Source: a virus
Lineage: Duplodnaviria; Heunggongvirae; Uroviricota; Caudoviricetes
Virus record (IMG/VR): IMGVR_UViG_2703718823_000011
DNA: 39,014 bases
Strand: one strand, 5' to 3'
This document shows positions 33,964-39,014 of this stretch, one piece after another; the stretch's first letter is position 1, and every line of letters begins with the position of its first letter. Under the pieces are notes generated by a model. It saw only the letters and a program-made list of their open reading frames with translations, was not told where the DNA came from and did no database searches. The position numbers and the translations under genes are program-made.

Positions 33964-34524
33964 ATGCTGATTGGCTATATACGCGTATCAACAAATGACC
34001 AGAACACAGGTTTACAAAGAAATGCGCTGGAATGTGCAGGATGTGAGCAGATTTTTGAAGATAAAATGAGCGGAAAAACAACGCAGCGGCCGGGACTGAA
34101 GCGGGCACTGAAGAAACTAAAACCCGGTGACACGCTGATGGTCTGGAAACTGGACAGGCTGGGGCGCAGTATGCGCCACCTTGTTGCGCTGACAGATGAA
34201 TTACAGCAACAGGGGATAAATTTTCGTAGTCTTACTGACAGCATTGATACGTCAACCCCCATGGGGCGCTTCTTTTTTCACATAATGGGTGCGCTGGCAG
34301 AAATGGAGCGTGAATTGATTGTCGAACGGACACGGGCTGGTCTTACAGCTGCCCGTGAAAGGGGACGAACCGGCGGCAGACCCCGTCGTCTCACGCAGGA
34401 ACAATACGAGCAGGTCGGGCGTTTACTGGCCGGGGGGGTCAGCCGAAGACAGGTGGCACTTATTTTTGATATCGGCCTTTCAACCCTTTATCGTTATTAT
34501 CCTGCGAGCGTTTTGGAAAAATAA
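33964..34524 (+). CDS. gin: Serine DNA invertase Gin (Hin/Gin/Cin family)
   Basis: 186 aa; MLIGYIRVSTNDQN... with catalytic serine context, near-colinear with Gin as recalled; C-terminal helix-turn-helix. Confidence 0.95.
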   Translation: MLIGYIRVSTNDQNTGLQRNALECAGCEQIFEDKMSGKTTQRPGLKRALKKLKPGDTLMVWKLDRLGRSMRHLVALTDELQQQGINFRSLTDSIDTSTPMGRFFFHIMGALAEMERELIVERTRAGLTAARERGRTGGRPRRLTQEQYEQVGRLLAGGVSRRQVALIFDIGLSTLYRYYPASVLEK

Positions 34525-34614: not shown

Positions 34615-36696
34615 ATGAATATTATGACGTCCAAATGGGTTCAACTATCATCAATGCCCGGAAACTTTACCGTTAAAGTTTCCGGTGGTACAGCGGCATT
34701 TCTTGAGGCTCCCTTTCCTCCGGCTGAAACGAAAGGAGGTATGACATTTGCTGACTGTCTCATCAGTTTTAATACACGGGATTGCCTGTGGGTAAGGCCA
34801 GTATCCGGTGATCCGAACGTGGAAATTACCGGAGCGGGTATTGGTGCTGTCATTCCGTTAAGTGCTGATGTTGCCGGTACTACTGAACCGTCAGACTGGA
34901 ACAATGCGGAAACATACACTTCCTCAGCAGGAGATAAAGTTGCAGGTCAAACTCCGTCCTGGTATTACGTGGTTGTTATTGCTGGTCAGTCGAATGCATC
35001 GTCATTTGGTGAAGGTCTTCCTTTGCCTGATACCTATGATCGACCTGATCCACGTATTAAACAGCTGGCTCGCCGTAACACGGTTACACCTGGCGGGGTT
35101 GAATGCGCCTACAACGATATAATTCCGGCAGATCACTGTCTTCATGATGTGCTGGATATGAGTAACCATAATCATCCAAAAGCAGATCTTTCAAAAGGTC
35201 AGTATGGTTGTGTCGGCCAGGGTTTGCATATTGCAAAAAAACTCCTGCCCTTTATCCCGGAAGAGGCTGGTATCCTTCTGGTTCCCTGTGCCAGAGGAGG
35301 CTCTGCATTTACCGATGGTGCTGATGGTGAATTTACTGAAGCTTCCGGAGCAACATCTGCATCATCGCGCTGGGGAGTCAATAAACCTTTGTTCAGCGAT
35401 CTTGTTAACCGAACAAAAGCGGCTCTCAGCAGTAACCCCAGAAATATTCTCCTGTCCGTTGTCTGGATGCAGGGCGAGAATGATCTGAAAACAGGAAAAC
35501 ATGCTGAACATTCCGGTCTGTTTGTGACGATGGTCGAAACATTCAGGCGTGAACTTTCGGCTTTTTCTGCGCAATCTCCAGCCGGAGATATGGCTTCTGT
35601 ACCGTGGATCTGTGGTGATACGACGTATTACTGGAAAAATACATATCCAGAACAATACAAAGCTGTTTATGGCAAATATGCTAATGAAGCAAAGAACATT
35701 CACTTTGTTCCATTTGTTGTGGATGAAAATGGAAAAAATGTACCGACAAATAATCCAGATGAAGACCCGGATATTCCAGGTATTGGCTATTATGGTGCCA
35801 TAAGTCGCGATTCGACTAACTGGACATCAAACGACAGGGCAAGCCATTTCAGTTCATGGGCGCGCCGTGGAATTATTTCAGACCGTCTGGCAACAGCGAT
35901 TCTGACATTGTCAGGACAAAAATCTGCTTTCTTCCGCGGTGTAACGGCAACAGAACATTCTGATACCGGTAAGAGTGAGCCTGAACCCACCGGGGATGTG
36001 AAGGACGTGAGCGATCAGATGAAGATCATCGTTTCGTATACTGCAAACGCCCCGACAGAACCAATGAAAGATCAGGGGTGGAATGCGGCTTCCGGAAAAG
36101 CAACCTTTGTCACGGATGCTGCTGCAACAGGTGGTAACAAAGCGTTAAGGGTGAATAAAGCGCCTAACAGCATGGCCTCATGGAAAATGTATCATCCGAT
36201 CACAGCTGATAATGCCAGGGATTTGTTCGCCAGAGGTGGTGATATTTCCCTCCGTTTCAAAATTCCATCGGATGCGGGCATTGCGGAAAACCGGTATGGT
36301 GTTGGTATTTACTGGGCTGTAAGTAACTGGCCTGACGGTGACGGAAAAAATAACCTCATCGCATCATGTTTCCTGCAAACGGATTCAGCTAACCTGAATG
36401 TGATGTATCACAAAGGGAGCGGAAGTCAACAGATAGGATCGTATGGTGTCTTTGATCATGAATGGCATACGCTCTCGTTACGGTTTGCAGGTGGTAATAG
36501 CATGAGTGTTACCCCAGTTCTGGACGGGAAAGATGGTGAACCATTTGAACTTGTGAAGTGGGTGAATGCCGGGTTCACGGTGGATCAACTGACACTGACC
36601 GATATTACCGGCAATGCAGCCACTTACCCGATGTTGTTTGACACAATTAAAGTGCAGGTTAACGATGCGGTCTCTCCGTCTAATGTGAATAAATGA
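34615..36696 (+). CDS. SASA/SGNH-type carbohydrate O-acetylesterase with lectin-like C-terminal domain (prophage cargo; NanS-p-like candidate)
   Basis: 693 aa; GQSN nucleophile motif (about 34984-34995), ...CARGGSAF..., WMQGENDL block (about 35467-35487); C-terminal ~180 aa resembles a concanavalin/LamG-type jelly roll; own ribosome-binding site; AT-richer than the structural genes. Confidence 0.8.
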   Translation: MNIMTSKWVQLSSMPGNFTVKVSGGTAAFLEAPFPPAETKGGMTFADCLISFNTRDCLWVRPVSGDPNVEITGAGIGAVIPLSADVAGTTEPSDWNNAETYTSSAGDKVAGQTPSWYYVVVIAGQSNASSFGEGLPLPDTYDRPDPRIKQLARRNTVTPGGVECAYNDIIPADHCLHDVLDMSNHNHPKADLSKGQYGCVGQGLHIAKKLLPFIPEEAGILLVPCARGGSAFTDGADGEFTEASGATSASSRWGVNKPLFSDLVNRTKAALSSNPRNILLSVVWMQGENDLKTGKHAEHSGLFVTMVETFRRELSAFSAQSPAGDMASVPWICGDTTYYWKNTYPEQYKAVYGKYANEAKNIHFVPFVVDENGKNVPTNNPDEDPDIPGIGYYGAISRDSTNWTSNDRASHFSSWARRGIISDRLATAILTLSGQKSAFFRGVTATEHSDTGKSEPEPTGDVKDVSDQMKIIVSYTANAPTEPMKDQGWNAASGKATFVTDAAATGGNKALRVNKAPNSMASWKMYHPITADNARDLFARGGDISLRFKIPSDAGIAENRYGVGIYWAVSNWPDGDGKNNLIASCFLQTDSANLNVMYHKGSGSQQIGSYGVFDHEWHTLSLRFAGGNSMSVTPVLDGKDGEPFELVKWVNAGFTVDQLTLTDITGNAATYPMLFDTIKVQVNDAVSPSNVNK

Positions 36697-36731
36697 CGGG
36701 TAATTCATTTTATTTAAAATGGTGAGTGATT

Positions 36732-36911
36732 ATGCCAATACTACATACATTTATGCTTTATTTTTGCACGTGTGTGTGTCTACTTTATCTCCTCAGCGGA
36801 GGTTACAAAATTATCCGAAATTATTTTCGAAATAAAATTGATGCAGCCGCAGAGGAAAAGATAAAAAGCGGTGCTGTAATGCCGCAGCCGAAAGACTCCG
36901 GTCAGATTTAA
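36732..36911 (+). CDS. Small hydrophobic protein (cargo island)
   Basis: About 59 aa from ATG 36732 (track GTG 36726); N-terminal hydrophobic segment PILHTFMLYFCTCVCLLYLL. Confidence 0.45.
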   Translation: MPILHTFMLYFCTCVCLLYLLSGGYKIIRNYFRNKIDAAAEEKIKSGAVMPQPKDSGQI

Positions 36912-36946
36912 TTTTTTGTGAACCAGAAAAGGAAAGGAGAATATTC

Positions 36947-37192
36947 ATGCCAGAGATTAAAGGCACGGTTACTGAAGAGCTTGTCAAACAGGCACTTTAT
37001 TCTGAAGAAGTGAACCGCGTGCTGAAGGCGCAGGTTCGCAAGGATTTTGAGGCACAAATCGACGCATATGTTGATGAAGTGCTGGCCCGAATGGTTGGCC
37101 ATTCTCCGGCTGAAAACAGCACGGAGAATGAGCCTCAGCCCGTAGAGCAACCAGAGCCGGTTCAGCCCGGAACTGACAGTGCCATGATGTAA
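36947..37192 (+). CDS. Small acidic hypothetical protein (cargo island)
   Basis: 81 aa; strong ribosome-binding site AAAGGAAAGGAGA. Confidence 0.5.
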   Translation: MPEIKGTVTEELVKQALYSEEVNRVLKAQVRKDFEAQIDAYVDEVLARMVGHSPAENSTENEPQPVEQPEPVQPGTDSAMM

Positions 37193-37266
37193 CAATACAA
37201 ACCGACAGCTTCTCCTGTCGGTTTGATTTTCATGGGCGATGTATATACCAGTCAGAGGAAATAATC

Positions 37267-37467
37267 ATGGACAAGAACAAAAAGCAGCCCGATACCAAAG
37301 GTCTGGAAATATTAAGCGCAGAAATTATCAATGCGCTACGTTCAGGACTTGATGAAAATACATTACAGGATCGAAACTTCACCACTGCAATGTGGATAGC
37401 GATGCAGATCCTGTGTACCCCAAGATGCGCTATTTTTGCGGTTCGTGAGGGTCAGTTGACTCGCTGA
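37267..37467 (+). CDS. Small hypothetical protein (cargo island)
   Basis: 66 aa; ribosome-binding site GAGGAAATAATC-ATG. Confidence 0.45.
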   Translation: MDKNKKQPDTKGLEILSAEIINALRSGLDENTLQDRNFTTAMWIAMQILCTPRCAIFAVREGQLTR

Positions 37468-37636
37468 TTGCCCGAATTACATCAGAAAAGCACGCGTTCC
37501 ATAATTGCATAGCTGATGAATCACCAGCTGTATGAAAAGAGGTAAAGACACAACTGGTGGATGTCATTGCTGCAATTGTGATATCAGCTGCAATTCGCGC
37601 AGCCTGTAACTTTTGGTCGGTGGTCAGTTTATCCAT
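37430..37636 (-). CDS. Small hypothetical protein, convergent with and overlapping 37267-37467
   Basis: About 68 aa from ATG at 37634-37636 (MDKLTTDQ...) with AGGAG 4 nt upstream; track ORF extends to 37660; 3' ends overlap by 38 bp. Confidence 0.4.
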   Translation of the reverse strand: MDKLTTDQKLQAARIAADITIAAMTSTSCVFTSFHTAGDSSAMQLWNACFSDVIRAISESTDPHEPQK

Positions 37637-37710
37637 TTTCTCCTGCCTGAACAGATGCATCTCTGCTTTACAGGAGGCCGGGGAATATCATAGGATACAC
37701 CACGAGCTCA

Positions 37711-37870
37711 GAGTGAAGCATTGATGCAGTTTTTTACAGATTGACCCAGAATAGTTCGCGCTATCTGAGTCGCCATTTATGTAGTCCCGAAGTAAAGCAT
37801 TGATGCAAACTTGTCTAAATCGGCCCAGCATAGTTCCAGCTATGCTGGGTTTCCCTTTTATGTAGTATCC
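37711..37870. repeat. Tandem direct repeat, 2 x ~80 bp, about 70 percent identical
   Basis: Copy 1 37711-37790, copy 2 37791-37870; shared blocks AAGCATTGATGCA, CCCAG.ATAGTTC, TTTATGTAGT. Confidence 0.6.
37824..37865 (+). terminator. Terminator-like hairpin within repeat copy 2
   Basis: CCCAGCATAG-ttccag-CTATGCTGGG (perfect 10 bp stem) followed by TTTCCCTTTTATG; the equivalent in copy 1 is degenerate. Confidence 0.5.
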
Positions 37871-37911
37871 TGTTGATTTGAAACATACTACATATACGCG
37901 CGATCCTACCT

Positions 37912-37951
37912 TCACTGGATAAAAAGTCAATAAAATGATCATTTTATGATC
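37912..37951. promoter_or_regulatory. Cluster of three GATC (Dam) sites upstream of com/mom
   Basis: GATC at 37912, 37937 and 37948 within 40 bp; two further GATC at 38059 and 38072. Confidence 0.45.
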
Positions 37952-38054
37952 GTTTTCACCGCCTAACTCTTCGTTTTCTTTAAGTAAATAATCACCGCCC
38001 TGAATCATTGTTGATGACTTTTCAATCTATTTGTTGTATCAATTAAACAAATCG

Positions 38055-38079
38055 AATCGATCGTTTTTGTCGATCGATT
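38055..38079. promoter_or_regulatory. Perfect 9 bp inverted repeat AATCGATCG-N7-CGATCGATT upstream of com
   Basis: Arms at 38055-38063 and 38071-38079, each containing a GATC; 44 bp upstream of the com ATG. Confidence 0.4.
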
Positions 38080-38122
38080 GCATGAGAAAGGCATCAACAA
38101 CAAAGCAGGAGGTTATGCGGCC

Positions 38123-38323
38123 ATGTATCGAAACATACGGTGCCGACACTGCAATAAGCTACTGGCACGGGCCAGTTTCAGTTATCTGGAAGTAAAATGT
38201 CCGCGCTGTAAAACCCTCAATCAAATCACATCTCCGAGCGCCACAGAGCACCCCACATACACAAGGAAATCCTGTCGTGGGGAACAGAAAGCAAGTCACA
38301 TCCCGTATCATCAGCACGCCTGA
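38123..38323 (+). CDS. com: Com zinc-finger translational activator of mom
   Basis: [30 protein letters not shown]... matches Mu Com (M.SIRC.NCNKLL...SF...E.RCPRCK); AGGAGG upstream; track start 38078 is TTG. Confidence 0.85.
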
Positions 38324-39014
38324 ACTTATTCGCTATAACGACAATATCGTTGGTTATGGTTCCCGTGAGTTGCGGGTTGAGACAATAAGTTGCTGGCTGG
38401 CCAGACTGGTTATCGTCAATAAACATTACAGCCACCGTTTCGTAAATAACTCCTACCTTCATCTGGGCATATTTTCAGAACGGGAACTTGTTGGCGTAAT
38501 GCAATGGGGTTACGCCCTTAACCCAAACAGTGGTGCACGCGTCGTAACGGGTACGCAGAACCGAGAATATATGGAGCTGAACCGGCTATGGATGCATGAC
38601 TGTATGCCGAGAAATTCCGAATCAAGGGCAATCAGTTACGCGCTCAAGCTAATCAGGCAGCTTTATCCGCAGGTACAGTGGGTTCAGTCGTTTGCAGATG
38701 AGCGTTGTGGCTGTCTTGGTGTCGTGTATCAGGCAAGCAATTTTGATTATGTAGGCAGCCATGAAACAATATTCTATGAACTTGATGGCGAGTGGTATCA
38801 CGAGATTTGCAGGAATGCCATTAAACGAGGCGGACAACGAGGTGAACATCTGAGGGCTAATATCGACAGAGCCAGTGTGCATAAGTTCCGACAGTTTCGT
38901 TACATCCGGTTTCTGAACAAGAGGGCCAGAAAACGCCTCAACACAAAGCTATTCAAAGTCCAGCCTTACCCAAAACCACAAACAGTTAAAACTGGTTTGA
39001 AAGAGAGTGAATGA
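38277..39014 (+). CDS. mom: Mom-like DNA modification protein
   Basis: 245 aa ORF starting (GTG) inside the 3' end of com as in Mu com/mom; size close to Mu Mom (about 231 aa); Dam-site cluster upstream; stop is the last codon of the window. Confidence 0.7.

Follow-up and report, generated by a model that had tools for sequence, protein, structure and literature searches.

Two short open reading frames (ORFs) near the right end of this prophage converge and overlap at their 3' ends, which raises the question of whether both are genes and, if so, whether their arrangement controls their expression. The window, i.e. the whole stretch of 39,014 nucleotides analysed here, is a complete Mu-like prophage, and over the region examined it is 100% identical to E. 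coli STEC2018-607 (NZ_CP075697). We call the rightward ORF B and the leftward ORF A. The initial annotation had described a 66-aa plus-strand ORF and a minus-strand ORF of about 68 aa that converge with a 38-bp overlap, each with a plausible ribosome-binding site; the ORF list agrees with this, and GAGGAA (for B) and AGGAG (for A) can be read in the sequence (Table 1). The two genes together total about 400 bp. For A, the ORF list gives a longer form of 76 aa. L005, a relative with 92% identity to the window, has an intact 68-aa ORF, but the ATG at 37660 from which the longer form would begin is missing there and out of frame, and the Salmonella homologues of A start at the same residue as the 68-aa form, with GTG or TTG; the 68-aa start is thus the real one. 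The geometry of the ORFs is in itself within chance expectation (convergent 3'-overlapping pairs of ORFs of at least 60 aa number 19 in the window, versus 6-15 in 20 shuffles), and it is conservation that sets the A/B pair apart.

Table 1. Features of the A/B pair and its surroundings (positions are those of the window unless another locus is named).
Feature	Position	Strand	Remarks
gin	33964-34524		
693-aa SASA/DUF6645 esterase	34615-36696		NanS-p-like sialate O-acetylesterase
DUF1378	36726-36911		
DUF826	36947-37192		
Bidirectional terminator-like hairpin	37198-37225	both	11-bp stem; between DUF826 and B
Shine-Dalgarno of B, GAGGAA	37255-37260	+	6 nt before the ATG of B; read from sequence
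A/B pair	37267-37636		between DUF826 and com
Gene B	37267-37467	+	66 aa, ATG; ORF list
Dual-coding 3' overlap of A and B	37430-37467	both	38 bp
Gene A	37430-37636	-	68 aa, ATG at 37636 (MDKLTTDQK...)
Longer ORF in the frame of A	37430-37660	-	76 aa from ATG at 37660; ORF list
Shine-Dalgarno of A, AGGAG	37640-37644	-	3 nt before the ATG at 37636; read from sequence
Anti-SD, CCUCCUG	37671-37677	-	predicted to sequester the ribosome-binding site of A
106-aa ORF	37688-38008	-	within PGAP "frameshifted pseudogene"; phrog_26524 N-terminus
154-aa ORF, counterpart of the 106-aa ORF	L004 2311-2775		WP_115801860.1, phrog_26524
Tandem duplication of leader unit (hairpin 1 + box GCATCAATGCTTTAC)	37712-37869		2 x 79 bp, diverged
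Hairpin 1, rightward terminator-like	37822-37851	+	13-bp stem + T-tract
Hairpin 0 (AUGUAGUAU...AUACUACAU)	37859-37894	-	inverted repeat I6; predicted 5' end of A transcript
Candidate sigma-70 promoter of A, TTGACT-16-TAGGAT	37903-37930	-	
com	38123-38323		
mom	38277-39014		

When 5.8 billion proteins were searched by word index, A and B matched near-identical E. coli sequences and nothing else. A phmmer search with A against 1.84 billion representative proteins found two full-length, collinear homologues, P0010 (66 aa, 38% identity to A) and P0011 (65 aa, 45% identity), with library E values of 6e-5 and 1e-4 and pairwise BLASTP E values of 3e-16 to 4e-17. Both contigs are right ends of Mu-like prophages, and on both the A homologue converges on a 63-aa B homologue with an overlap of 26 bp. 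B is 36-38% identical to 63-aa Salmonella homologues (pairwise E value 3e-11), and the motif RNF..AMW[IV]AMQ..C.P is common to its E. coli and Salmonella forms. A profile search with B gave 40 clusters, and all source-named ones are "hypothetical protein" of E. coli or Salmonella enterica, as is B itself in the PGAP annotation (WP_001536755.1). The ratio dN/dS (Nei-Gojobori) is 0.05-0.11 for B in the E. coli clade and 0.12-0.42 in the Salmonella clade (most pairs 0.12-0.28), with corresponding values for A of 0.10-0.39 and 0.19-0.68. Between the window and L005, third codon positions account for 11 of 15 substitutions in B and, outside the overlap, for 8 of 12 in A; indels in A keep the frame, as in the 3-aa in-frame deletion of L040. 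Given the full-length homologues, the dN/dS values below 1 and the in-frame indels, both A and B are, on this comparative evidence, real protein-coding genes under purifying selection. A carries no annotation in most records examined, and PGAP draws a "frameshifted pseudogene" upstream of A in its place. It is a concrete case of a conserved, real small gene hidden by overlap.

Conservation of the pair in homologous islands had been proposed in the initial annotation as a check, and the outcome was positive in both E. coli and Salmonella: A is present, convergent and overlapping in 45 of the 49 loci that carry B (17 haplotypes). L021-L027 and L038-L050 are among the loci where A keeps this position and this partner. 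The pair spans E. coli and Salmonella clades that are only 36-45% identical in protein, and its geometry is the same across this roughly 60% protein divergence and next to three different right-hand modules, namely com-mom, com-Dcm, or a HEPN-like operon (257, 123 and 43 aa). This constancy argues against an alternative in which A and B are independent accessory genes that just happen to lie side by side, with the overlap a matter of compaction and Rho or weak terminators ending each transcript soon after its stop codon. We consider that alternative unlikely, although it deserves to be taken seriously. Also against it, A was never seen without B among the 49 loci. In its favour are the frequency with which convergent ORF overlaps arise by chance, the length of the overlap, which varies between 38 bp in the window and 26 bp in the Salmonella clade (where A does not have a 4-codon C-terminal extension), and the substitutions within the overlap, which favour B and degrade the tail of A (between the window and L005, three of four are synonymous in B and non-synonymous in A).

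The alternative of two independent genes also finds support in loci where B stands without A. B persists in three haplotypes in which A is lost or truncated, and a complete A is missing beside it in two independent lineages: E. coli loci of the AST198 type (L006, L012 and L033), where window positions 37526-37989 are missing, and Salmonella L037, where A and its leader are wholly missing. Nonsense codons in A are on record as well (L003; W46stop in CP55_Sichuan). Since B persists without A in the first four of these loci and A is nonsense in L003, A and B are not obligatorily coupled. Variants of B with deletions or truncations are found too. The A protein is conserved at both ends and hypervariable in the centre (residues ~22-45, window 37502-37573), where E. 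coli copies differ by an S28R/C29G/V30N patch. In Salmonella, A occurs as two very different alleles that assort independently of B, which is conserved throughout; between L021 and L024, for example, pS is 0.04 in B and 0.51 in A. Such independent recombination of A and B alleles again favours the alternative of two independent genes.

Of 233 E. coli genomes matching the region, only about 15 have the pair, as do about 15 of 5,426 complete E. coli genomes; it is commoner in Salmonella than in E. coli. In the common E. coli form (e.g. L004), 199 bp that encode a Zn-ribbon ORF replace window positions 37222-37654. From these comparisons, A/B is best read as a new, narrowly distributed accessory gene pair, of modest immediate importance.

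The pair lies between gin and the cargo genes on the left and com-mom on the right, which places it in the Mu-like right-end accessory (moron) region. In Salmonella loci the order is the same: Phage_Mu_Gp48, tail-fibre and resolvase genes stand on the left of the pair, and on its right comes Mom, Dcm or the HEPN-like operon. The esterase, DUF1378 and DUF826 genes are the ones found beside stx in Stx2a phages (PMC10462455), so that "cargo island", the label used in the initial annotation, is a fair one. This set, normally found after stx in lambdoid Stx phages, stands here between gin and com (34615-37192), and DUF1353 and ILEI-domain genes occupy its slot in the Salmonella relatives. In STEC2018-607 the prophage is inserted in bcsA (cellulose synthase catalytic subunit), which is annotated as incomplete and adjoins mom (L002 5445-6965). 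In other strains, prophages of the same type sit in elfC/fimD-like usher, rhsD and ABC transporter genes, a variety that is as expected for Mu-type transposition.

To the right of the pair, com and a 350-aa Dcm-type cytosine methyltransferase replace com-mom in some Salmonella relatives, and in others its place is taken by an operon of three genes (257, 123 and 43 aa) that are encoded on the same strand as A; the 123-aa product matches PADLOC HEPN_IX with an E value of 3e-6. These replacements, seen at L022, L023 and L026 (3526-4839) and at the right ends of L024, L025, L027, L037 and L038, indicate that the right end of the prophage is evidently a site where modification and defence-type modules are swapped. 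Between the promoter of A and com there are GATC palindromes at 37933-37956 and 38055-38080 (TGATCATTTTATGATCG; TCGATCGTTTTTGTCGATCGATT), presumably the Dam/OxyR-type control region of mom.

How far the two transcription units reach into each other depends on their ends, and the promoters and terminators given here for the pair are consensus or structure predictions. The stretch from 37225 to 37822 has no terminator-like site, and intrinsic terminators between A and B are absent from every clade scanned, which is a further point against two independent genes. To the left, the A transcript may end at the bidirectional hairpin between DUF826 and B; the first strong leftward terminator of L038 is found further upstream, past DUF1353. 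To the right, hairpin 1 is the first rightward terminator-like site downstream of B, and it lies inside the leader of A. When its variants were folded sequence by sequence, five stem variants showed compensatory changes, and three single-mismatch variants had G.U on the plus strand and A.C on the A-sense strand. This pattern points to selection on the rightward RNA, i.e. to termination of rightward transcription ahead of the toxic mom operon. The T-tract after the hairpin is poor in most Salmonella variants (CGUCCCUUUAU). At the position equivalent to the candidate sigma-70 promoter of A, which is near-consensus, Salmonella loci have TTGACG-16-TATAAT (matching 11 of 12) or TTGACT-16-TAGGAT. 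As for B, the stop codon of DUF1353 overlaps its start (ATGA) in four Salmonella loci, so B ends a rightward operon there. In the window, B comes just downstream of the terminator-like hairpin, with only a weak promoter candidate (TATATA, 37242-37247), and this placement is a gap in the transcription model.

The leader of A (37655-37930 in minus-strand sense) is conserved in nucleotide sequence, more so from E. coli to Salmonella than the A protein itself. It is about 260 nt long in the window, and relatives with a single unit have about 180 nt. Its parts are a 5' hairpin, the covarying, GC-rich hairpin 1, the box GCATCAATGCTTTAC, and the anti-SD. Salmonella leaders also keep hairpin 0, with another promoter cassette upstream of it. 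In minimum free energy folds of the last 60 nt of the leader, the anti-SD pairs with the SD region in all 11 variants, the Zn-ribbon type included, and L021 has CCUCAUG opposite UAUGAGG. The unit made up of hairpin 1 and the box is tandemly duplicated in the window, the two copies (37712-37790 and 37791-37869) being 75% identical and the promoter-distal one having a degraded hairpin; it is single-copy in L004 and L005, and an independent, different duplication is present in Salmonella L021 and L038-L042. The same leader also precedes an unrelated 55-aa Zn-ribbon ORF (MKEPVCPAC...CPAC), without B, in about 200 E. coli genomes.

Annotation of this DNA as coding is probably spurious. The 106-aa ORF and its 154-aa counterpart in L004 might be taken for a real gene that the pair has disrupted, an idea we rejected because near-identical leaders differ by 1-nt indels, because L001 has a broken copy of the ORF with an undamaged Zn-ribbon ORF downstream, and because no long ORF runs across the element in Salmonella leaders (e.g. 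L021); they are probably non-coding leader and promoter DNA. A binding site for Com in the leader was likewise rejected, since comparison with the com-mom junction revealed two chance 8-mers in common and nothing more. The inverted repeat 37656-37671/37792-37807 does not provide for pairing of a trans-acting small RNA with its target, since opposite-strand transcripts of its arms are same-sense rather than complementary. Read as a stem within one molecule, the repeat has a single compensatory change (GCATC/GATGC to GCATTA/TAATGC) and is broken in L005, L024 and L043.

On the plus strand, the leader DNA holds a conserved promoter-like site (TTTACA-18-TAGGAT, 37667-37696), the -10 element of which overlaps TATGAT on the opposite strand; a U-rich stretch and then a terminator hairpin (to 37851) follow. 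Judged by its sequence, this site could specify an RNA of about 80-160 nt antisense to the leader of A. It is conceivable that the key element of the locus is an RNA, with the leader (37655-37900) encoding a plus-strand small RNA that runs from TTTACA-18-TAGGAT to hairpin 1 and acts in cis as an antisense to the leader of A, in the manner of hok/sok, B being a bystander. We regard this as very improbable. It would account for the leader being better conserved than the A protein and for the two independent tandem duplications of the leader unit, and leaders of both E. coli and Salmonella conserve the promoter-like motif, with a U-rich stretch and then a hairpin 1 that shows plus strand-specific conservation. 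However, conservation of the motif is not independent evidence, since the same sequence is conserved anyway by the anti-SD function; L024 has TGGGAT at the -10 position; hairpin 1 is equally explained as a terminator of the B or late transcript; and a search of 36500-38400 on both strands against Rfam 15 gave no match at E<=1.

The reading we prefer is that A and B form a conserved accessory module of fully overlapping convergent units, with excludon-like reciprocal expression, and we would put the chance that this is right at about even. It starts from two genes that are under purifying selection and conserved as a pair, and from the positions of the promoter-like and terminator-like elements around them, and from these we infer the transcripts, their reciprocity and the translational masking of A. 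The module lies between the tail-fibre, gin and cargo genes and the terminal DNA-modification module. B would be the last gene of a rightward transcription unit, and A would be transcribed leftward from its own sigma-70 promoter with a long structured leader, the anti-SD of which would mask the ribosome-binding site, so that A would be additionally held back. The rightward B transcript would cross all of A and most of its leader before reaching hairpin 1, and the leftward A transcript would cross all of B before reaching 37225-37198; with no terminator between the genes and hairpins at the flanks, the prediction is that each mRNA runs antisense along the full length of the other gene. Reciprocal repression would then come about by polymerase collision or transcriptional interference and/or by cleavage of the RNA duplex. 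If both genes are expressed, their mRNAs are necessarily complementary within the overlap, a point that the alternative of two independent genes also has to accommodate. The reading of the initial annotation is supported in part: mutual antisense transcription, which it had taken from the overlap, is plausible given the anatomy described here. Against this, Rho-dependent termination inside the untranslated antisense stretches may occur, and the overlap may be simple phage genome compaction. As to what is being controlled, our guess is an accessory function expressed in the lysogen or early (exclusion or counter-defence), with the variable centre of A setting specificity.

The proteins themselves resemble little that is described. 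AF2 models give A helices at 6-26 and 40-59 (pLDDT 68) and B three main helices (pLDDT 67), and neither model matched the PDB in Foldseek. Profile searches of the PDB paired B with the LuxR-type HTH of EvgA (E=0.28) and A with histone H2B (E=0.12), and we rejected both as chance. Searches by tblastn with A and P0010 against 50,697 phage records, and with A, B and P0010 against phage and plasmid records, gave no match; a scan of species-representative genomes with the A alignment gave 105 pattern matches, none of them confirmed; and literature searches on the pair, on Sp18 small RNAs and on Mu-like hotspots gave nothing relevant. The N-terminal helix of A (residues 2-26) and that of its Salmonella homologues weakly match positions 3-27 or 3-38 of the 61-position profile phrog_25148 (E values 1.3e-4 to 2e-3), a partial match, the one at 1.3e-4 covering 25 of 61 profile positions; since this family has no known function, membership would say nothing on mechanism.

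The suggestion of a toxin-antitoxin-like module in the initial annotation found no support. Scans of A and B against Pfam, NCBIfam and PADLOC found no toxin, antitoxin or defence model, nor any other match. GRAVY is negative for both, and neither has a conserved hydrophobic or transmembrane-type segment by Kyte-Doolittle, Salmonella homologues included (the best 19-residue window is 1.23 in A and 1.53 in B, and 0.5-1.0 in the Salmonella homologues). Type I systems pair a small hydrophobic, membrane-inserting toxin, which neither A nor B is, with a non-coding antisense RNA antitoxin; here both strands are coding, with conserved starts and stops, and as both genes encode proteins, neither is simply an RNA antitoxin. 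The lack of a terminator between A and B is compatible with the overlapping, complementary transcripts of type I loci. Nor is there the co-directional bicistronic operon, toxin fold or DNA-binding antitoxin of type II. By the testable features of either type, assignment of the pair as a toxin-antitoxin system fails. The mRNAs of A and B may have an extra role at the RNA level.

A wider form of the idea, a toxin-antitoxin or abortive-infection module in which one protein is toxic and is neutralised by the partner protein and/or by antisense mRNA, we consider improbable. Were it right, A would be the most plausible toxin, its translation being tightly masked. A has a strong candidate promoter and an SD-sequestering leader, as in type I toxin mRNAs; it has been repeatedly inactivated (by nonsense in L003 and by deletion in L006/L033 and L037) and does not occur without B; and the convergent overlapping arrangement lies inside a prophage accessory region, with a HEPN-like module next to the pair in some Salmonella relatives. 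Against this stand, besides the protein searches and hydropathy values above, the purifying selection on both partners as proteins, the existence of B variants with deletions or truncations, and the use of the same leader to drive the Zn-ribbon ORF without B. The free recombination of A alleles (pS 0.5) against a near-identical B (pS 0.04) argues against a tight cognate pair. Type I loci with convergent, 3'-overlapping transcripts occur in prophages, e.g. txpA/ratA and bsrG/SR4 of Bacillus subtilis. These resemble A/B in their prophage location, in their convergent overlapping 3' ends, and in a structured leader by which one of the two genes has its ribosome-binding site hidden. They differ in that neither A nor B is a small hydrophobic peptide, and in that the "antisense" partner in A/B is a conserved protein gene.

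Beyond reciprocal expression as such, a more ambitious proposal can be made: A, B and the leader together would be an undescribed prophage module in which a masked A, with a hypervariable specificity loop, is checked by convergent transcription of B and perhaps by binding of B. This is speculative and we think it has little chance of being correct. If true, it would be a new switch for exclusion, abortive infection or counter-defence, controlled by protein plus antisense and built on a reusable "leader platform" from which the Zn-ribbon gene of about 200 other E. coli prophages is driven too. Since the pair occupies a slot adjoining mom in which DNA-modification and HEPN-type modules are swapped, a part in conflicts between phage and host or between phages merits testing. 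With its well-defined flanking elements, the pair also offers a small natural system in which to study excludon-type control in a temperate phage.

One related known system is com-mom of phage Mu. In Mu without the activator C, RNA polymerase is recruited to momP2, a divergent promoter that overlaps Pmom (PMC3378877). Leftward promoter activity adjoining mom is known in this phage. The promoter of A lies in the same neighbourhood, points leftward and is about 200 bp from com, and the start of A is predicted to lie hidden in an RNA stem, as with mom. Unlike this prophage, Mu itself has no genes between gin and com, and the promoter of A is separate from momP2, being a stronger sigma-70-like site further left. 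The convergent-promoter switches of coliphages 186 and P2 (PMC5001618) are similar to A/B in having face-to-face units in a temperate phage, with mutual depression expected. In 186/P2 the immunity and lytic promoters are about 60 bp apart and work with a repressor, which is identified only in those phages; the promoters of the A/B pair are at least about 640 bp apart and lie in the accessory region. In excludons, transcription overlaps through the UTRs of oppositely oriented neighbours, with interference or RNase III cleavage as the outcome (PMC12288877, PMC7154746). A/B shares with them opposite-strand neighbours, predicted terminators that lie beyond the partner gene, and an expectation of mutually exclusive expression (PMC12288877, PMC7154746). 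It differs in that the coding regions themselves overlap, by 38 bp, and in that the overlap of the A and B transcripts is deduced from sequence. The small-gene pair is new, and its arrangement is of a known kind.
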